Shown here: piece after piece, positions 6,052 to 60,286 of the stretch | Numbering within the stretch: the first letter of the stretch is position 1 | Layout of the letters: the number at the start of each line of letters is the position of its first letter | Source of the DNA: Chiloscyllium plagiosum | Taxonomy: Eukaryota | Length of the DNA: 64,000 nt | NCBI RefSeq assembly: GCF_004010195.1 | Contig: NC_057718.1 | Span: 8,414,494-8,478,493 of the forward strand | Reading direction: 5' to 3' | Position numbers and translations under genes: made by a program | Notes under the pieces: model-generated | Databases searched by the model: none | The model's input: only the letters and a program-made list of their open reading frames with translations | What the model was told of the DNA's origin: nothing

Positions 6052-6422
6052 TCACGGGCTGGTCAAGTTACCCAGTCTCCTGCAAAGGAGCTCAAAGACG
6101 TTTGCAGTACACAGCAGAAAAATGATAGCAATGAAGCTGTATATGGCACTGAGGGGTATGGTCTTCTCAAAGTGCTCAGAGACCATACACTTGGTGACGT
6201 TAAAATGCTTGTCAAGGGATGAGGCATTGCACCGGAAGTTCCACCTGAACTGGAACCCAAAAAGATGACTGAAGCCGGTGCCTTGAAGATCATCCTAGAC
6301 AGGACAGATGCAGGAGATGGTAGAGGCTGGCCTCTGGAGGATCAGTGATGTGGCAAGCAGCGTGGAGATGCAAAACTACTCTGAGGAATAGAACAGAGAC
6401 CAGCCATAAAGCCCAAAAACAC
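6052..6422 (-). pseudogene. GJE1: Connexin 23 (GJE1) pseudogene, coding exon 3
   Basis: After the ttttgcccag acceptor: ..FWALWLVSVLFLRVVLHLHAAC / frameshift / ILQRP..TAG.. SHLFGFQFRWNFRCNASSLDKHFNVTKCMVSEHFEKTIPLSAIYSFIAIIFLLCTANVFELLCRRLGNLTSP*. Matches GJE1 motifs VFWALQLV, HLYAAC, ILQKP, HLFGFQ and KCMVPEHFEKTI. Confidence 0.92.
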
Positions 6423-11212: not shown

Positions 11213-11800
11213 ATTCTTTGAAGGTTGCATCGCATGTAGACAGGATAGTTGAGAAGGTATTTAGCATGCTTGCCTTCATTGCTCAGACCTTTGAGTAAAG
11301 GAGTTGGGACGGTACATTGAAGTGGTGCAGGACACCATGGTGAGGTCTCTTCTGGAGTACTGTGTACAGTTCCGGTTGCCCTACTATAGGAAGGTTATTA
11401 TTAAATTGGAGGGGGCTCAGAAAAGATTTACCAGGATGTTGCCGGGAATGAAGTGTTTAAATTATAAGGATAGGCTCGATGGGCCGGGATGTTTTTCATT
11501 GGAGCGTCGTAGTTTGAGGGGTGACCTTATGAAGGTTGATAAAATCATGAGTTTTAAAAGGGGCCTGAGGGGCAACCTTTTCACACAAATGATGGTTCAC
11601 ATGTGGAATGAACTGCCAGAGGAAGCGGTAGATTCAGGAACAGTTAAAACATTGGAAACAAATTTGGATAGGTACATGAATAGGAAAGGTTTGAGGAGAT
11701 ATGAGCCAAACACAGGAAAGTGAGGCTAGTTTGGGAAACTCAGTCAGCATGTACGAATTGGACCGAATGGCCTGTTTCCACACTGTGAGACTCTCTAAAG
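11213..11800 (+). mobile_element. CR1 LINE 3' fragment in GJE1 intron 1
   Basis: ORF 11304-11723 (LEYCVQF..QKRFTRMLPG..RGDL..WNELPEE). Confidence 0.85.
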
Positions 11801-21592: not shown

Positions 21593-21667
21593 GACAGTAC
21601 CCATTAATGTATATAATGACAGTACCCATTAATGTATATAATGACAGTACCCATTAATGTATATAAT
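21593..21667 (+). repeat. Perfect 3 x 25 bp tandem repeat
   Basis: GACAGTACCCATTAATGTATATAAT x3. Confidence 0.95.
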
Positions 21668-47790: not shown

Positions 47791-50160
47791 CCACAGAATT
47801 GTATGTTTACATGATCCTAGATTTTCCAATTATAATTTGAAAGCAGACTGAATGATGGAGGAAAGATGATGGTGTATTGGTGCTGTCACTGGGTTAGCAA
47901 TCTAGTCAACCCTAGGCTAATGTTCTGGGGATATGGGTTCAAATCCCACCCATAACAGAGGGTGAGCTGTAAATTCATCATTTCTTAATGGTCTGAAACC
48001 ATTTTTTAAAAACCTGTTCATCAAATCTCTTTAAGGAATGAAAATCTACCCTCTTTCTCTGGTCTGGCCTACATGTGACTCCAGACCCAAAGCAATGTGG
48101 TTGACATATAACTGCCTTTTGAAATGATAGGGCAAATCACTCAATGGAAGTGCAGTTATGGATGGGAAACAAGTAATGGCCTTGTCAATGATGCCCACAT
48201 TCTATCAAAAGATAAAGTGAGCATGGATATTAGCTTCCTGGATAACTCGTGTACTGCAATGGCAATGCATCACAAGTATTCAAGTTCCACCTTCTCCAAA
48301 GGTGTGTAAGAACATCCCTGAGCAAGTTGATTAGAAAATGTCTGTAACTACACCATCCCATTGAGAAGTGATTCCACAAGATTGATACCAACATTAACAT
48401 CAACAAAGTGGCTGAAATGTCCAAACTTCCCTTTCAGAATTGGAAACTGTGAAGAAGCCCAGCTCCAACTGGTAGCTCCATTAATTCACATTCTTCCATT
48501 CTATTTTTGTTTGCTGTTTGCAATGTGAAAGTATCAATGAGACTTGCTTCACTGCCAGGTATAACAGTCTCATATTTCAGATAATCCTCCTTTCTCTGAA
48601 TTTGGGTCTGCCTTTGAAATCCTAGCACCCTTAACTTGTTCTAAATGATCACAAGATGTAGATTCCAGAAGCAGCTGTGAATACCCAATTGGACGAATTC
48701 CCCATTAGCTTTGAAGAAAAGTGATTTATAAGAATACTTACATTAGCAAAGAACAACTTTTCAGTTTGAGATTGCTTGCTGCTGGTCTTAAAGTGGTGGC
48801 TGTGAAAGTCGAACATCCTGAGGGGCTATCCATGGTATGACTGGTTGGGTTCTCACATGTGTTGCCATCCCTATCCTTTAAGAGCTAGAGATATGAGAAT
48901 CTGCAGGATGAAAACAGCTCAGTGCCTGTGCAATTTAGCATGCTTCCATTTTGAATACCTTGGTACTGGCATGGAGTCTCTGATCTCCAACTTTACACTG
49001 CCCTCTATCCAATCCACCAGTGCTGTTCTAATACCAAAGATTTTTTTAAAAAAAGAACAGCCCCAAAGATCCCACTTTCTAATGTCCATATTGTCTTTAA
49101 TGTGGATCCATTTCTTTGAGGGGTTCAAGATTAGTGTTGGTTGGTGCACAGAACCAGGAGCAATTAAAACATTGAATGTTTTTGCTATTTGGGTATTTGT
49201 GTGGAACATACCAACACATTGTGAAAACCTTTACTTGTTGCACATGTTAGTTTCCAGAGTTAGTGTGTGCTTAACATTGAGGGGTTCACACTCATTACCT
49301 GGGGAAAGGTAGTCCTCACAGGAACCTTTAGAAAAGGATATTGGGACTTCGGTTTTAGAAAATTGAATTGCAGACAATTTGCAATCTAATCAGAACCAAC
49401 CCTCTATCCAAGAATAGAACAGGATTACAGCTGCTGAAGGCATTGGATAGTCAAGCATTCCTGGGAACGAAAAGAATGACAACATTGGGATTGTAGCAAT
49501 GGATTCTGGCTGGTTTGGGTTATTTGATATGTCAATGCAGAGTTGTTATTGTACAGGGAGAGGTGTTCCCTGAATGATCTTCTCTTTGGATTCAGTAATA
49601 ACTTTCATCATTTTTCATCTGAGCCCAGTGACTTTTTCTAATAAAATATAATTTCTTTTTTTGATAACATGATTACTCTGTTATGGGAGAAACAAGTATA
49701 ACTGCCAGCTCTGAGAACTGATCAATGACGATTGTTTAAAGACAGAGAGAGGGAATAAAAAAAGAAAAAAAAACCTAGGGCTCAATCTGAAATCGAGAAA
49801 TTAAGAGTGGGCGAGAAGTGATAAAAACAGTGTCTGAAAGACGGATGCAAAGGTAGAGAGAAAGAGGAGAGGAGTGAGTGAGGAGGAAGAATCTGAATAA
49901 ATGTGAAGTGAAAAATAAAGCAAAGGAGTATGAAAGAATTCAACACAGTGAGATAAAAGGTCGGTGGAAAGTGGAGATTTGAAGTGGAAGAGAAAGCTAG
50001 CAGAAGGGGATACAGGAACACACAGTAAGAAGAACAGCAGAAAGTCAGATACGGAAGAAGTAACGAGTTGAAACAAAAGGAGTCAGAAAATTATTATTAA
50101 ACAGAGAAATCGGTCAGAGGAAAGGAAAATCGCGGCGCTGAAGGCAAGAGGGAAGGTTTA

Positions 50161-50720
50161 CAGTTTCAGCACCGCACCTCAGAGACAGCTCTTTTCACGG
50201 TTGCTGAGACTGGACAACAGCGCACAGCCAGCTCTCCCGACTATGTCAGCACCACGCATCAGGGACAGCTCCTTCCACAGACGCTGAGACTTGATAGCAG
50301 CGGACAGTCAGCTCGCTCCTCAGTTTCAGCACCACGCATCGGGGTCAGCTCCTTCCACAGACGCCAAGACTGGATAGCTGCGGACAGTCAGCTCGCTCCT
50401 CAGTTTCAGCACCACGCATCGAGGACAGCTCCTTCCACAGACGCTAAGACTGGGTAGCAGCGGACAGTCAGCTCACTCCACAGTTTCAGCACCACGCATC
50501 GGGGACAGCTCCTTCCACAGACGCTGAGACTTGATAGCAGCGGACAGTCAGCTCGCTCCACAGTTTCAGCATCACGCATCGAGGACAGCTCCTTCCACAG
50601 ACGCCAAGACTGGGTAGCAGCGGACAGTCAGTTCACTCCACAGTTTCAGCACCACGCATCGGGGTCAGCTCCTTCCACAGACGCTGAGACTGGATAGCAG
50701 CGGGCAACCGGCTCTCTCTT
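50161..50720 (+). repeat. Tandem array, 7 x 80 bp, upstream of NMBR
   Basis: Units start at 50161, 50241, 50321, 50401, 50481, 50561 and 50641. Typical unit: CAGTTTCAGCACCACGCATCGGGGACAGCTCCTTCCACAGACGCTGAGACTTGATAGCAGCGGACAGTCAGCTCGCTCCA. Confidence 0.97.
50164..50672 (+). promoter_or_regulatory. Seven candidate non-canonical RE1/NRSE (REST) sites, one per repeat unit
   Basis: TTCAGCACC + 9-nt spacer + GGACAGCTCC, compared with canonical TTCAGCACC-NN-GGACAGCGCC. Lies next to the start of a neuronal/neuroendocrine GPCR gene. Confidence 0.6.
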
Positions 50721-51074
50721 GCAGTCTCAGGTAATCTCCAAGCCCTGCGGCACTTATTTTTAACTTTTGTTTGTAGATGATTTGGGAATATTTAGAGAAT
50801 GAAATGTGAACGTCTGGTGGTTGATATTCTTGTGAACGTGTTCCCAGAATTTCGGTTGACTTCTCTTCTTCTTCTTTCTTTCAGGGAACTTGTTGCGAAA
50901 GAACAGTGACGCAACTTGCTGATTATCCAGATAATTGACTGTCTGGAAAGGAGCTGACCTCACGAGGTTGAGGTAGTAGGTGGGGGTGGAGTTGAGACCA
51001 TTGTAGCGAAAGCATAAGGCATCCTTGTCCAGCATTTATTTTCCCCTTGGGACAGGAGCCAACGCTTCAGGAGG

Positions 51075-51478
51075 ATGGATGGTGAACTGTTCGACAACGG
51101 TACTTTTCTTTCACTCAACGGAGCAACTTGGAACAACTTTACAGAGGAGATAGTCTACCTTGACACCGCGTTCTTTGTGATCCGATGCATCATCCCCCCC
51201 ATCTACCTCCTCCTCATCACAGTGGGCTTGCTGGGGAACATCACTTTGGTCAGGGTCTTTGTAGCTAACAGCGCTATGAGAAGTGTGCCTAACATTTTCA
51301 TTTCCAGTTTAGCAGCTGGTGACCTGCTGCTCCTGGTCACTTGTGTCCCAGTGGACGCTGCCAGGTATTTCTTTGAGGATTGGATCTTCGGCTCACTGGC
51401 TTGTAAGCTCATCCCCATGATCCAACTCACCTCAGTGGGAGTGTCAGTGTTCACCCTGACGGCTCTCAGTGCAGACAG
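51075..51478 (+). CDS. NMBR: Neuromedin B receptor (bombesin receptor family GPCR), first coding exon (TM1-TM3); downstream exons not found in the window
   Basis: The ORF contains [96 protein letters not shown] and RYFF favour NMBR over GRPR/BRS3. Phase-2 donor AG|GTAAGT at 51479 splits the R of DRY. GJE1 as neighbour supports the assignment. Confidence 0.93.
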
Positions 51479-54049
51479 GTAAGTGGGACATCTAGTCAGT
51501 TCCATCTGCAATTGTCTAGTGTTGACTTTATCAGACACTTTCTGTTTGTTTTGTATATATGTATCTACCTGTCTTCTGGTCTATCAATCTATTAACTTAC
51601 CAAATTCCCCTTCTATCTGTTGGTGTATTCTTCTAGATATTCATCCCAGTTATAATAAAATGAAGATAATTGAATGCAGTAATCCATTTTTAGTAAATAG
51701 TAGCTCTAAGCACTCAAAATTTGAAAAGAAATGGAATTTGTAAGAAAGCAGACAAATTACATCCTTTCAGAGAGATTGAGGCACTTCAGTTTCTTTACCA
51801 GGGTGAAGGGATTTTTTTTTCTAATAGACAACCCTCAAATGTATGGAATGATCTTTACATTCATCACATTGGGAGCTTCAATGATGAAAGAAATAATGTT
51901 CTCATATTCCTTGCTATCACTCCCCTCCCCCCCCCCCCCCAAACCTCTCAAGCTGTCTGTATGATACAATTAGAACAAAGATAGTGGACATGGAATGACA
52001 GTACAATCTAAAATCCCATGCAGTACAGCAGTGCAAAGTTTGAATAATTGACCTTTCTCATAGGATGTGCATTCATTGGTTGAAAAATATATGAATACTA
52101 GCTATTATAATTGTTAAAAGATAAATACATTGTGGCATGGCAATTGCCTCACTCAGTTAGTATGAAAAAGGGCTTATGCCCGAAACGTCAATTCTCCTGT
52201 TCCCTGGATGCTGCCTGACCTGCTGCGCTTCTCCAGCAACACATTTTCAGCTCTGATCTCCAGCATCTGCAGACCTCACTTTCTCCTCACTCAGTTAGTA
52301 GAACCTCTAAAGAACTCAGAAAGAAGTTCTGAAGAATGGTTACTGGTCTTGAAATATTAATTCCATTTTCTCTCAATGTGGAGGTGCCAGTGTTAGACTG
52401 GAGTTGACAAAGTCAGAAGTCACATGACACCAGTTTAAAGTCCATCAGGTTGATTTAACATCACACGCTTTAGTTGCTATTCCGCTATTGACACCTCACT
52501 CACACTGTTTGACACTTTTGATCACCTCCAAAGACTTGTTATCCAGCCTGTTGACACTCCCCTCACACCATTTGTACTATCATTTGATGCTCTTAATGAC
52601 CTGGAATTACTTTGCAATGATCTCTCAGCCTGTAAATCCTCTGACTATGCCCTTCCATCCACTTCACCTGATGAAGGAGCACCATTTCAAAAGCTTTCGA
52701 TTTCAAATAAAATCTATTGGACTATAACTTGGTGTCATGTGACCTCTGACTGTTTTCTCTCAACAGATGCTGCCAGACCTGCAGAGTTTCTCCAGCCCTT
52801 TCTGTTTTCATTTTGGGAAAAAAAGGCAGTTTCATTATGTACCCTCTGCAGGAGTATATGGGTGGGGGGAGGGGGTCATTGCAACATGAAATGTTAACCC
52901 TGCAATTTTGCAGATGCTGTCTGACCTGATGAGCATTTCCAGCTTTTTCTATTTTTATTGTCAACTTTCTGTTCCAAAGCCTTTTCAAATCCTACTCCTG
53001 TAACTATGCTTTTGGTCACCTCTAAACATATTTTTATTAATAAGAAGCTTTACTGCTGCCTATTAAAGATCTGGGGACATTTAATTGCAATCGCAGCATG
53101 ATATAAATGCAAGTTGCATATCTTCACATGTGCAATAAATATTCAGTAGATGCCCCACTGGGACACCAGGTGTATTTGTGCCAGTATGTTGTTCTGTCAT
53201 ATCTCTAACAGCACTTTGTAATATACTCATCACATTGTTAAGATAAATTCCCCATTTTTGCGTTCTTCCTCCATTCTTTGAGATGTTGATTCATCTGTCA
53301 GCTCCTCTCGTGCAATTATTCTGCATAAGCATCACCTCCAAAAGCCCTAGGCTATTTGAATATAGGAAGCTCCTTGCAAACAAACCTAATTCAAACCATC
53401 AAACACTGGAAGGGAATCTACTATCCTTACCCATTCTGAAATAAAGTGTCTTCAAGCTTCTAGCAATGTGATAGAAACTTAAGTGACTTGTGAAATCGTC
53501 TGGAACTCATTCAGCTCTATTGAAAATAAAAGATATCTTATCACTATCTTGTCAAGGGAAATTAGGAATGGCACAATAAGTGCTGATTTTTCTGTGATGC
53601 CCAAATGTGACATTTAAACTTAAAAAAGTGCATGTATTCATTGAACTGGGTGGGGTGAGGGGAGGGGGTGCTTTGTGGGTTGTGGTGCTTTGCTGACACC
53701 ATTGTTCCATGCAGTACAATTGACAGCTAGGTCTAGAGGACACCATCTTTATACATTGCAACGATACTCTTTTCAAAGCTTAGCCAGTAGCTTTGTGGAT
53801 TAGATATCCCTATCAACCAAAACAGTGAACAAATCCTTTGTGCATTTATGTGACATTCCTCTGGTGCATTTAAGGGCAAATGAAGTAAGCACACATGGAA
53901 GGATGGAAAGATGGAAATTCTGATCGGGTTAAATGGAGAAGAGGTGGGTGTAAGTTGTGGGAAGCATAAACACATGAATGTATTGAACTGAATGGCTTTT
54001 TTGTGATCAGTTCATTGATTTTACATAATATCAAGTGAGATCTTTGATT

Positions 54050-54590
54050 TGTTTTGATTTATTGTTGTCACATGTACCAACATACAGTAGAAAATGTTTG
54101 TGTGCTGTACAGGCAGACTGTATCATACAAAGTGCATCAGAATAGCAGAACAGAGTGCAGAATACAATGTCACAGCCACAGAGAAGGTGCAGGGAGAGGT
54201 CAACATGAACATTTGAGAGATCTGTTCAGAAGTCTGATAATGGGGGAACAAAGCTGTTCTTGACTCATAAGAGAGTATAACTGGGGTGGGAGGGGTCTTT
54301 AATTATGTTGATTGCTTTCCTAAAGCAACAGGAAGTATAGATGGGGTGAATGGGTGGGAGGCTGGTTTATGTAATTGACTGGGCTGTGTTCGCGGTTCTC
54401 TGTAGTTTCCTGCAGTCTTGGGAAGGGCAGTTGGCATACTATGCTGTTATGCATCCAGATAGAATGCTTTCTATGGTGCACCTATAAAAGTTGGTAAGGG
54501 TGTTGGTTGATCAGCTGAATTTCCTTAGCCTCCTGTGCAATAGAGATGCTGTTGGGCTTTCTTGACCATCATGTTAACGTGAGTGGACCA
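54050..54590 (-). mobile_element. Rex1/Babar-like LINE 3' fragment (continues at 55066-55085)
   Basis: Minus strand ITNNLSWS|THVNMMVKKAQQHLY..RRLRKF, split by the Penelope insertion. Confidence 0.65.
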
Positions 54591-54591
54591 G

Positions 54592-55066
54592 GCAAAAGTG
54601 GGTACTGCAGATGCTGGAAATCTGAGTCTAGATTAGAGTGGTGCTGGAAAAACACAGCAGGTCAGGCAGCATCCGAGGAGCAGGAAAATTGACTTTTCGG
54701 GCAAATGGGCTTTCTTGACCATCATGCTAATGTGAGTGGACCAGGCAAAAGTGGGTACTGCAGATGCTGGAAATCAGAGTCTAGATTAGAGTGGTGCTGG
54801 AAAGACACAGCAGGTCGGGCAGCATCTGAGGAGCAGGAAAATTGACTTTTCGGGCAAAATGGAGTGGATGGGTGGGAAGGAAGATTGACAGGTGGGACAA
54901 GTCATGGGGCGGTGCTGAGCTGCAAGGTTGGAACTGGAGTAAAGTGGGGGAGGGGAAATGAGGAAACTGGTGAAGTCCACATTGATGCCCTGGGGTTGAA
55001 CTTCCGAAGTCCACATTGATGCCCTGGGGTTGAAGTGTTCCGGGGTGGAAGGTGAGGGGACCAAGA
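54592..55066 (-). mobile_element. Penelope-like family A fragment with a duplicated terminus
   Basis: QPQGINVDFTSF tail plus two copies of the terminal repeat. Confidence 0.75.
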
Positions 55067-55949: not shown

Positions 55950-58690
55950 AAAAATTGCAAAAATGATTCTAGATAGGAGCAAAAGTAACAGGGTAGTTAT
56001 GGGGGACTTTTAACTTTCCAAATATTGACTGGAAATGCTATAGTTTGAGTATTTCAGATAGGTCAGTTTTTGTCCAATATGTGCAAGAGAGTTTCCTGAC
56101 CCAATATGTAGATAGGCCAACATGAGGCAAAATCATATTGGATTTGGTACTGGATAATCAACCAGGCCAGGTGTTAGATTTGGAAGTAGGTAAGCACTTT
56201 GGTGATAATGACCACAATTCAGTTATGTTTACTTTAGCGATGGCAAGGATTAGGTGTACAGCAGGGCAAGAGTTACAGCTGGGGGAAAGGCAATTATGAG
56301 GCAATTAGGCAAGATTTAGGATGCATAAGATGGGGAAGGAAACTACAGGGAATGGGCACAATTGAAATGTGGAGCTTGTTCAAGGAACAGCTACTGCATG
56401 TTTTTCTCTCCACGCTTCAGGCTCACTGCCTTTATTCCTGATGAAGGGCTTTTGCCTGAAACGTCGATTTCAAAGCTCCTTGGATGCTGCCTGAACTGCT
56501 GTGCTCTTCCAGCACCACTAATCCAGATACTGCATGTCTTTGATAAGTATGTACCTGTCAGGTAGGGAGGAAGTGGTCGAGCAAGGGAACTGTGGTTTAC
56601 TAAGGAAGTTGACTCTCTTGTCAAGAGGAAGTAGGAGACTTATGTTAAGATGAGACGTGAAGGCTCAGTTAGGGTGCTTGAGAGATACAAGTTAGCCAGG
56701 AAAGACCTAAAGTGAGAGCTAAGAAGAGCCAGGAAAGGACATGAGAAGTCTTTGGCAGGTAGGATCAAGGAAAACCCTGAAGCTTTCTATAAAAATGTCA
56801 GGAATAAAAGAATGACGAGAGTAAGATTAGGGCCAGTCAAGGACAGTAGTGGGAAGTTGTGTGTGGAGTCCAAAGAGATAGGAGAGAGGCTAAATAAATA
56901 TTTTTCGTCAGAATTCACATTGGAAAAAGACAATGTTGTCGAGGAGAATACTGAGACACAGGCTACGAGACGAGTCGGGATTGAGGTTCACAATTTTGGA
57001 ACTTGTCAAAATAGATAAATGCCTGGACTGGATGGGATTTATCCTAGGATTTTCTGGGAAGCTAGGGACAAGATTGCAGAGTCTTTGACTTTGATCTTTA
57101 CGTTGTCATTGTCCACAGGAATAGTGCCAAAAGACTTGAGGATAGCAAAGGTTGTTTCCTTGTTCAAGAAGGGGAGTAGAGACAACCCTGGTAATTATAG
57201 ACCAGTGAGCCTTACTTCGTTGTGGGTAAAGTGTTGGAATGGATTATAAGAGGTAGGATTTATAATCATCTAGAAAGGAATAATTTGATCAGTGATAGTC
57301 AACATGGTTTTGTGAAGGGTAGGTCGTGCCTCACACACCTTGTTGAGTTCTTTAAGAAGATGACCAAACAGTTGGCAAGGGCAAAGTGTTGATGTGGTGG
57401 ATTTGGATTTCAGTAAAGCATTTGATAAAGTTCCCCATGGTGAGCTATTGCAGAAAATACGGAAGCATAGGATTAAGGGTGATTTAACGGTTTGGATCAG
57501 AAATTGGTTAGCTGTAAGAAGACAGAGGGTGGTTGTTGATGGAAAATGTTTATCCTGGAGTTCAGTTACTATTGGTGCACTGTAAGGATCTGTTTTGGGG
57601 CCACTGCTGTTTGTCATTTTTATAAATGACCTGGACGAAGGTGCAGAAGGTTGGGTTAGTAAATTTGCGGATGACACTTAAGTCAGTGGAGTTATAGATA
57701 GTGCTGAAGGATGCTGCAGGTTACCGAGGAACATAAATAAGCTACAGAGCTGGCCTGAGAGGTGGCAAATGGAGCTTATTGTGGAAAAGTGTGAGGTGAT
57801 TCACTTTGGAAGGAGTAACAAGAATGTAGAGTACTGGGCTAATGGTAAGATCTTTGGTAGTGTGGATGAGCAGAGAGATCTCAGTGTCCATGTGCATAGA
57901 TCCCTGAAAGTTGCCATCCAAGTTGATAGAGCTGTTAAGAAGGCATACAGAGTATTCGGTTTTATTGAAAAGGAATTGAGTTTTGGAGCCATGAGATCAT
58001 GTTGCAGCTGTACAAAATACTGGTGCAGCTGCATTTGGAGTATTGTACAGTTCTGGTCGCAGCATTATAGGAAGGATGGGGAAGCATTGGAAAGAGTGCA
58101 GAGGAGATTTACCAGAATGTTGCCTGGTATGGAGAGATGGTCTTATGAGGAAAGGCTGAGGGCTTTGAGGCTGTTTTCATTGGAGAGAAGAAGGTTGAGA
58201 GGTTATTTAATCGAGACATACAAGATGATCAGAGGATTAGATAAGGTGGACTGTGAGAGCCTTTTTCTTCAGATGGTGATGAAAATGTGTTGCTGGAAAA
58301 GCGCAGCAGGTCAGACAGCATCCAAGGAGCAGGAGAATCGATATTTCAGGCATATTTTCAGCTCTGATCTCCAGCATCTGCAGTCCTCACTTTCTTCAGA
58401 TAGTGATGGCTAGCACGAGGGGACATAGCTTTAAATTGAGGGGTGATGGACATAGGACAGATATCAGAGGAAGTTCTTTACTCAAAGAGTAGTAGGGGTA
58501 TGGAACGCGCTGCCTACAACGTAGTAGACTCACCAATTTTAAGGGCATTTAAATGATCATTGGATAAACATGTGGACGATAATGGAATAGTGTAAGTTCA
58601 ATGAGCTTTAGATTTGTTTCACAGGTAGGTGCAACTTTGGGGGCCGAATGACCTGTACTGCACTGAAATGTTCCATGGTCTATGTTTTAT
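55950..58690 (+). mobile_element. 5'-truncated CR1 LINE (~2.7 kb, endonuclease tail plus RT) inserted into a SINE
   Basis: GDFNFPNIDW, PGLDGIYPR, NYRPVSLTS, DFSKAFDKVPH, KFADDT. ATGTCA is duplicated at 55945 and 58689, with SINE halves on either side. Confidence 0.92.
56434..56470 (+). ncRNA. Minimal hammerhead ribozyme motif (family A), sense strand of NMBR intron 1
   Basis: attc-CTGATGA-a-gggc-tttt-gcct-GAAAC-GTC-ga. Confidence 0.65.
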
Positions 58691-59743
58691 GTCAGTGATT
58701 GATTCATAACTCTCCTATGGGCAATAAATGCTGGCTCAGCCAGTGATGCCCACACCCCATGAATGAATTAAAATGCTCATCATGATTTTCACATTCCTCC
58801 ATGACCTGACCTGCGTTATCTCTGTAATCTTCTCCAATCACGCAATCTTCTAGAATCTAAGACTGGCATTTTGAGTATCTCCAATTTTAATGACTGGACA
58901 ACTTGCAACTATGCCTCAGCTTCCCTAACTCACCCGACATCCCCTCCCAAACACACCCAAACCTCTGCACCTCCCTTATTTCACTCTTCTTATTGTAGAA
59001 ACTCTGAGCTCTAAAACCTATCTATTTAACCAGTCCCTCCCAACTTCGTATTATGTAGTTTGGCATTAAATTTCCCATTGCAACATTCTTGTGTGATTTT
59101 TCATTGATGGCATTCTAAAGTCAGTTGTTATTGTAGAAACTGTGATCATTAGTGTTTACGCATTCTTACTGTTGAAGATGTTGTAAATGTGATCTGCTGA
59201 TTTTGTTTTAGCCCTAATGTCTCATGTTTTGCACCCTATTGTTATAATACTTTGTGGATTCTCTGTTTGTTGACATGCAGTGGCAACTAGCATTGACACA
59301 GGGTTAGTTTCTGCACACATTCAGTGATAACACTCAGCTTTACCCCTCCATCACTGCTCAGGATTATAAAGCCACTTCCACCAATACTGACAACTTGTTG
59401 TGTTAGGAAACTAGAAGAATCTTATCTTGCCTGTTTCAAGCCTCTACACCACAATACCAGTGCAAACTTCATTTATCAGCATAAACTGTTGAAAATTTCC
59501 TCTGCATGGGGTTCCCTGTACAAATACATCTTTTGTTTTAAAAGATAGATTGTTGAAAATAGGTGGAAGCCAGGAACCTGTTTAGCTATGTTTGTGCTGT
59601 AATTGCGGCACATGTCATTGTGTCTAGATATCATAGAATCCCTACCATGTGGATACAGGCCATTTGGCCCAACCATTCCACACTGACCCTCCGGAGAGTA
59701 TTCCACCCCCAGACCCATTTCTCTACCCTAATACTCTACATTT

Positions 59744-60128
59744 TGCATGCAATTCTGGTCTCCTTCCTATTGGAAAGATGTTGTGAAACTTGAAAGGGTT
59801 CAGAAAAGATTTACAAGGATGTTGCCAGGGTTGGAGGGTTTGAGCTGTATGGAGAGGCTAAATAGGCTGGGGCTGTTGTCTCTGGAGCATTGGAGGCTAA
59901 GGGGTGACCTTATAGAGGTTTATAAAATCATGAGGGGCATGGATAGACAAGATATTTTCCCTTGGGTGAGTGAGTCCAGAACTAGAGGGCATAGGTTTAG
60001 GGTGAGAGGGGAAAGATATAAAAGAGACCTAAGGGGCAACTTTTTCACACAGAGAGTGATGCATGTATGGAATGAGCTGCCAGAGGAAGTGGTGGAGGCT
60101 GGTACAATTACAACATTTAAGAGGCATT
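59744..60128 (+). mobile_element. CR1 fragment nested in an antisense HE1-like SINE
   Basis: ORF 59747: QFWSPSYWKDVVKLERVQKRFTRMLPGL; SINE tail at 59634-59740 and SINE head at 60129-60305. Confidence 0.85.
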
Positions 60129-60286
60129 TACCTGACCTGCACATCTTTAGACTGTGGGAGGGAACCATGGCAACCGGAGGAAACCCACACAGACACGGGG
60201 AGAATGTGCAAACTCCACACAGACAGTCACCTGAGGCTGGAATTGAACCCGGGTGTCTGGCAATGTGAGGCAGCATGGCTAACCAC

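Follow-up and report, generated by a model that had tools for sequence, protein, structure and literature searches.

The window, that is, the whole 64,000-base stretch of Chiloscyllium plagiosum DNA analysed here, contains the first coding exon of an NMBR orthologue (51075..51478, plus strand), which encodes 135 residues and ends at an AG/GT junction. Among human receptors with solved structures, this exon scores highest against NMBR (174 bits), followed by GRPR (136 bits) and BRS3 (119.5 bits), a ranking made on the first exon only and without a tree; the gene named in a preliminary description of this DNA is thus borne out. No further receptor exon was seen by eye among plus-strand frames of at least 70 residues between 51480 and 64000, and NMBR intron 1 probably runs past the window end. 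At 51411-51485, contigs of a paralogous receptor gene, from three DNA runs, share the same loose end. Far upstream, a connexin C-terminal remnant (6052-6291, minus strand) was found with a Pfam E of 1.1e-4, below the curated cut-off; it fits GJE1, a neighbour of NMBR. Elsewhere, the window holds broken reverse-transcriptase-like frames at 56716-58413, 59732-60268 and 11295-11723, by eye presumably LINE remnants, and Tandem Repeats Finder reports three perfect copies of a 25-bp unit at 21593-21667 and two copies (96%) of a 153-bp unit at 54553-54858.

Upstream of the NMBR exon lies a minisatellite of seven 80-bp units in exact 80-bp register (50160..50719, plus strand). Tandem Repeats Finder places it at 50160-50703 (period 80, 6.8 copies, 87% matches, score 801) and, together with the unit alignment, confirms the seven-unit tandem array of the preliminary description. 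Minisatellites are head-to-tail units of 10-100 bp at one locus, and the array fits this definition, the single locus having been checked within the window, where no second copy of the 80-bp unit occurs. Units 2-7 are homogenised, differing from one another at 4-13 of 80 positions, while unit 1, which differs from them at 18-23 of 80, and the tail of unit 7 are diverged. At both ends the array merges into the locus sequence, and a degenerate start of an eighth unit (8/10 letters) follows at 50721..50730 on the plus strand. The direct-repeat ends and the diverged terminal units fit local duplication. The plus strand directly 5' of the array (49750-50100) is strongly purine-rich, with 74-79 purines per 100 bases. 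A search of metagenomes with a 20-base piece of the unit returned one match of 21 bases with no further similarity, which we judged to be due to chance.

Of 24 sequencing runs listed, 20 contain this stretch in whole or in part, and they come from three organisms. Variation was read from short contigs of four runs, one of which (X9) had almost no cover, representing the window's own organism (A) and two others (B and C). A contig of organism C (X17) extends over 49362-50291 with 44 differing letters in 929; it includes unit 1 and some of unit 2 and breaks off at the end of the window's first repeated 31-mer (50292). Another contig of this organism spans a unit junction, a 42-base array piece has depth 26 against 7-9 in the flanks, and a downstream contig carries 193 further letters before 50674. 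Because these contigs hold unit 1, a unit junction and a deep array piece, the multi-unit array is common to organism C at about 5% flank divergence. Organism B (X20, a run guessed to be RNA) contributes contigs over 50423-50531, 50662-50991 and 51167-51351. In another sample of organism A (X5), two array contigs have half the usual depth and a single variant letter apiece, which hints at alleles with different unit sequences. The array pieces listed for this sample have a depth of up to 48 against 18-21 in the flanks, or 2.0-2.7 times single-copy, where the window predicts 1.7-2.0; over two DNA runs, array pieces reach about 2-4 times single-copy depth, which is a rough ratio and not a copy number. 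Also in X5, depth falls at 50704-50780 and 102 letters before 50781 are unplaced among the matches listed, which may be an indel or an effect of the listing.

These observations bear on whether the unit is a dispersed satellite or a transposon fragment that landed at NMBR. We regard this as very improbable, given the absence of a second copy in 64 kb and the way in which the array passes into the locus at both ends. The modest depth of the array contigs in organisms A and C also argues against it.

In each of the seven units, an RE1 left half is followed after 9 bp by a right half; this layout, and the mismatch counts, are as the preliminary description gave them. For scoring, half-sites were defined as in the methods of PMC9903721. 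The degenerate consensus of PMC4430910 was split into a left half TYAGMRCC and a right half RGMSAG, with gaps of 0-12 on both strands, and a stricter right half, GGMSAG, was used after PMC2926608. The loose consensus has only four bipartite matches in all 64,000 bases, all with a gap of 9 and all within the array, and a canonical RE1 with a 2-bp gap has no match in the window. The left half is matched in six of the seven units (unit 6 fails) and the loose right half in five (units 3 and 7 fail).

All seven sites lie on the plus strand. The core is intact in unit 2 (50245..50272), unit 4 (50405..50432) and unit 5 (50485..50512), the three units that match the stricter consensus, and units 4 and 5 agree with 18 of 19 consensus letters. 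Unit 1 (50165..50192), in which the right half starts AG rather than GG, matches the loose consensus but not the strict one. The other three sites are predicted to be weak, with single mismatches that sit in core positions: the right core reads GGTCAG in both unit 3 (50325..50352) and unit 7 (50645..50672), which share this change, and the left core of unit 6 (50565..50592) reads CAGCAT for CAGCAC. The silencer had been called seven-fold; seven units are indeed present, but the term is overstated because four of seven match the published consensus and three of seven the stricter one, leaving a fully intact core in only 3-4. Where a tandem RE1 cluster is taken as at least two sites within 100 bp, head to tail, units 4 and 5, 80 bp apart, form such a cluster, as do units 1 and 2 under the loose consensus. 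A lone left half without a right half (50134..50142, minus strand) directly precedes the array. A 10-bp inverted repeat encloses the RE1 (50161-50212, in the same columns of each unit); it is best kept in units 1 and 7, carries 2-4 mismatches in five of the seven units and is broken in the middle ones.

A second GGACAG had also been proposed as a further half-site in each unit. It follows the first at a distance of 39 bp. Five of the seven units (2-6) keep it intact, but it agrees with the 10-letter right half in just 6 positions, and no left half precedes it at gaps of 2, 8 or 9. As a partner half-site it is a weak candidate, and single or flipped half-sites did not silence in the screen of PMC9903721. 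It is explained more simply as the trace of an older 37+43 internal duplication of the unit: Tandem Repeats Finder also detects a period of 43, and 4 of 2000 shuffles score as well as this duplication, whose boundaries were set by eye.

The gap length is what connects these sites with known REST biology. In a human genome-wide reporter screen, non-canonical arrangements silenced only with gaps of 8 or 9 bp, and flipped, convergent and divergent arrangements, like single half-sites, did not (PMC9903721). The 9-bp gap therefore falls in a class shown to silence in human cells, and the assignment to an expanded-spacer RE1 stands. ChIP-nexus sites have gaps of 2 or 7-9 bp and never 3-6, simulations have REST zinc finger 6 bridging the gap, and CAGCAC is the main binding determinant of the left half (PMC8096226); the GG dinucleotide of the right half has been called essential (PMC2926608). 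Expanded spacing was also found by mouse ChIP-PET (PMC2573930). According to PMC2926608, fugu REST binds a site with an 8-bp gap, and five NRSEs are predicted in the protocadherin cluster of the elephant shark. As reported in PMC9903721, the spacer sequence also affects silencing.

The array begins 915 bp and ends 356 bp before the NMBR ATG, within a CpG-enriched zone (49751..51250; observed/expected CpG of about 0.5-0.7 in 250-bp segments, compared with 0.24 over the whole window) that likely marks the promoter region. TATA, CCAAT and GC boxes are common promoter motifs, and none occurs within 600 bp before the array. Special methylation control of CpG-rich units, as first suggested, is not supported: observed/expected CpG is 0.67 within the array, below its flanks (0.86 before, 0.74 after; 0.19-0.24 in the rest of the window). 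Without an excess over its flanks, the array simply sits in the CpG-rich zone of the promoter. Comparison of CpG columns (4/10 varying among units) with other columns (29/70) gives no signal of CpG decay in the array.

Directly after the array lies a candidate 154-bp intron (50731..50884, plus strand), with a GT, a pyrimidine tract, an AG and 42% T. Its donor arises where the degenerate eighth-unit start ends, and it contains all three ATGs between the array and the start codon. From these features it is likely a 5'UTR intron. One contig of the run guessed as RNA crosses it unspliced. Should the X20 contigs derive from RNA, the 5' leader includes the 3' units, and the crossing contig retains the candidate intron. 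The placement "just upstream of NMBR" may thus be inexact, with some of the array possibly falling within the 5' leader.

This arrangement raises the alternative that the array acts mainly in RNA, through a structured 5' leader, a short upstream frame or other factors. The position of the candidate intron, the guessed-RNA contigs of organism B on 50423-50531 and 50662-50991, the inverted repeat of each unit and a 14-codon frame opened in unit 2 (50243-50287, plus strand) would all be compatible with such a role. However, this ATG is the only one within the array, present in one of seven units, and the inverted repeat is disrupted in most of them. Predicted folds have z -1.54 for two units and z from -2.58 to 0.85 for single units, hairpin arms are not conserved, and 49300-51100 has no Rfam match at E up to 1. 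We consider a main role in RNA quite improbable.

Human data point to REST at the same gene. Table S2 of PMC4055426, which covers REST ChIP-seq in 16 cell types, has 14 rows named NMBR, and a peak at the human NMBR promoter (chr6:142,409,911-142,410,501) scores 3554 and 2983 in two of them. By comparison, the VTA1 row in the same table scores 55, and the two CELSR3 rows listed score 53 and 232. The same promoter peak is found in human ES cells with a score of 4042, where it is labelled as non-conserved in mouse (PMC4499139 Table S2). Mouse Nmbr has no entry in the stem-cell REST tables of PMC2573930, in which the positive controls Celsr3 and Snap25 are found, and NMBR has no entry in the supplements of PMC11025195, a search without a positive control. 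In a canonical-only RE1 screen of Xenopus, nmbr is absent and brs3 present. Since the mouse and Xenopus lists are without NMBR, REST control is not a constant feature of this gene, and the shark site is not necessarily an orthologue of the human one. The absence of the human NMBR site from two canonical-motif tables of PMC9903721 was rejected as a sign of a non-canonical site, because that library omits loci within 5 kb upstream of start sites.

Whether the RE1 match could be a chance or dead look-alike in a neutral minisatellite that does not bind REST depends on how readily such a match arises and how well it is kept. Over 13 gap lengths, an 18/19-letter match is expected by chance in a unit with a probability of about 1e-6 (base composition) to 1e-5 (first-order model). 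The loose consensus appears more readily: 584 of 100,000 dinucleotide shuffles of unit 5 (0.6%) match it at any gap of 0-12, and 136 of 100,000 at gaps of 2, 8 or 9. When the seven units are compared, variation affects 3 of 14 columns in the core and 30 of 66 outside it (p 0.085), or 5 of 19 columns in the full motif and 28 of 61 outside it (p 0.10); with the tail of unit 7 excluded, the p values are 0.14 and 0.19. Conservation of the motif columns thus does not significantly exceed that of the remaining unit (p 0.08-0.19), and their variation shows a trend in the direction of constraint. In the diverged unit 1, the left half has 0/9 changes against 17/71 elsewhere (p 0.10), while 4 of 9 spacer letters differ.

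The frequency of loose matches in shuffles, the lack of significant constraint and the absence of a mouse peak from the tables searched speak for a look-alike. Against it stand the 18/19 match, the functional gap length, the location at the 5' end of NMBR, whose human promoter bears a very strong REST peak, and the retention of the left half by the most diverged unit. We consider a look-alike improbable. A real REST site is likely, because the 9-bp gap belongs to the silencing class and because the human NMBR promoter has a strong peak, and we predict that the array is likely a functional REST cluster. Taken alone, REST binding in the shark appears very probable.

From the array, motif, gap length, gene identity and sharing with related organisms observed here, and from the published gap rule, binding mode and human NMBR peak, we infer REST binding and repression in the shark, a duplication mechanism and a near-neutral copy number. 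Slippage or unequal crossover would have copied, head to tail, 80 bp of the NMBR promoter or 5' leader that included one wide-spaced RE1, and the middle units would have been homogenised afterwards. REST may occupy the intact units as it does other sites with 7-9-bp gaps, with zinc fingers 7-8 on the left half, fingers 3-5 on the right half and finger 6 bridging. Bound REST would recruit corepressors and keep NMBR off in non-neuronal cells. Probably 3-4 units are good sites and three are weakened. The cluster would provide redundancy, and REST might occupy it more strongly than it would a single weak non-canonical site. The copy number itself is probably tolerated rather than tuned; the core changes in three of seven units and the lack of significant motif conservation fit relaxed constraint on extra copies. 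To this reading as a whole, in which REST-binding intact units repress NMBR outside neurons and extra copies are tolerated, we assign a probability of roughly 0.6. The persistence of the array over about 5% divergence, together with the fewer changes in core columns, could mean more constraint than this reading allows.

An alternative is that the array works as a copy-number dial, in which unit number, or the count of intact sites, would be polymorphic, under selection and decisive for the tightness of REST silencing of NMBR. The array is common to organisms B and C, and the half-depth variant contigs of X5 and its array depth, somewhat above that predicted, point weakly the same way, depth being distinct from copy number. 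Published work supplies a possible mechanism: REST recruitment is more effective at tandem RE1s (PMC1557810), one REST molecule binds per tandem site (PMC8096226), and genes with several REST peaks show lower expression (PMC4055426). As wide-spaced RE1s silence more weakly than canonical ones (PMC9903721), additional copies could compensate. However, no joint or contig with a different unit number was found (0 joints in four runs, whose short contigs cannot span the array), the core is broken in three of seven units, and motif conservation falls short of significance. We therefore regard a selected dial as doubtful and retain the reading in which copies are tolerated.

The elements of this array have precedents. 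Expanded-spacer RE1/NRSE sites, such as the one with an 8-bp gap at PCDH HS5-1 (PMC8096226, PMC9903721, PMC2926608), have the same halves, order and orientation, with gaps of 7-9 bp; the shark sites, with predicted REST binding, differ in being repeated seven times at a fixed 80-bp spacing. Human tandem RE1 clusters, such as those at SNAP25 and L1CAM and groups of up to five head-to-tail motifs, show the same layout near the 5' end of a neuronal gene, and tandem duplication was proposed as the origin of such groups (PMC1557810). Compared with those canonical groups, the shark array is a regular 80-bp minisatellite of 9-bp-gap sites, with 3-4 of seven intact. The first exon of CELSR3 contains two tandem non-canonical sites, with an 11-bp gap where the shark array has 9 bp (PMC8096226).

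Promoter repeats offer a second set of parallels. The 68-bp promoter VNTR of PDYN resembles the shark array in unit size, in having a factor site within the repeat and in belonging to a neuropeptide-system gene; its repeat carries an AP-1-like activator site and is polymorphic at 1-5 copies, with the REST sites of PDYN outside the repeat (PMC8201134). In contrast to PDYN, the repeated site in the shark is predicted to be of the silencer type. The internal promoter VNTR of MIR137 (PMC4393679) likewise combines a repeat and REST regulation at one promoter. The closest match by gene is the human NMBR promoter peak (PMC4055426, PMC4499139 Table S2), with the same gene, region and factor and no peak at the aligned mouse position. 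Our literature search, which covered the main text of openly available papers, found neither a REST-NMBR link nor an RE1-bearing minisatellite. As tandem RE1 clusters and promoter repeats with factor sites are already known, the array is a variant of these, in which the unit of a regular minisatellite in the 5' region of shark NMBR carries a 9-bp-gap RE1.

A more far-reaching proposal is that sharks of this group swapped one weak wide-spaced RE1 for an expandable array, a naturally variable silencer rheostat in which the number of intact units differs between alleles or species and sets the neuronal confinement of NMBR, and that REST has been linked to NMBR since sharks and bony vertebrates diverged. 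We consider this proposal unlikely. If true, the repeat unit itself would be the REST site, providing an allelic series in nature with which to study REST dose-response and how sites with a 9-bp gap function.

The array presents, within a single context, seven naturally occurring variants of a site with a 9-bp gap, with 3-4 intact and three carrying single core changes, which form a test set for non-canonical RE1s and are suited to asking whether tandem copies add up. If copy number is variable and effective, the array would parallel, for a silencer, promoter repeats like that of PDYN, which carry activator sites; if not, it would clearly illustrate how a minisatellite can carry a real site with it. 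REST control of NMBR predicted in a cartilaginous fish, matching the human peak while mouse apparently lacks one, would imply either deep conservation or repeated gain.
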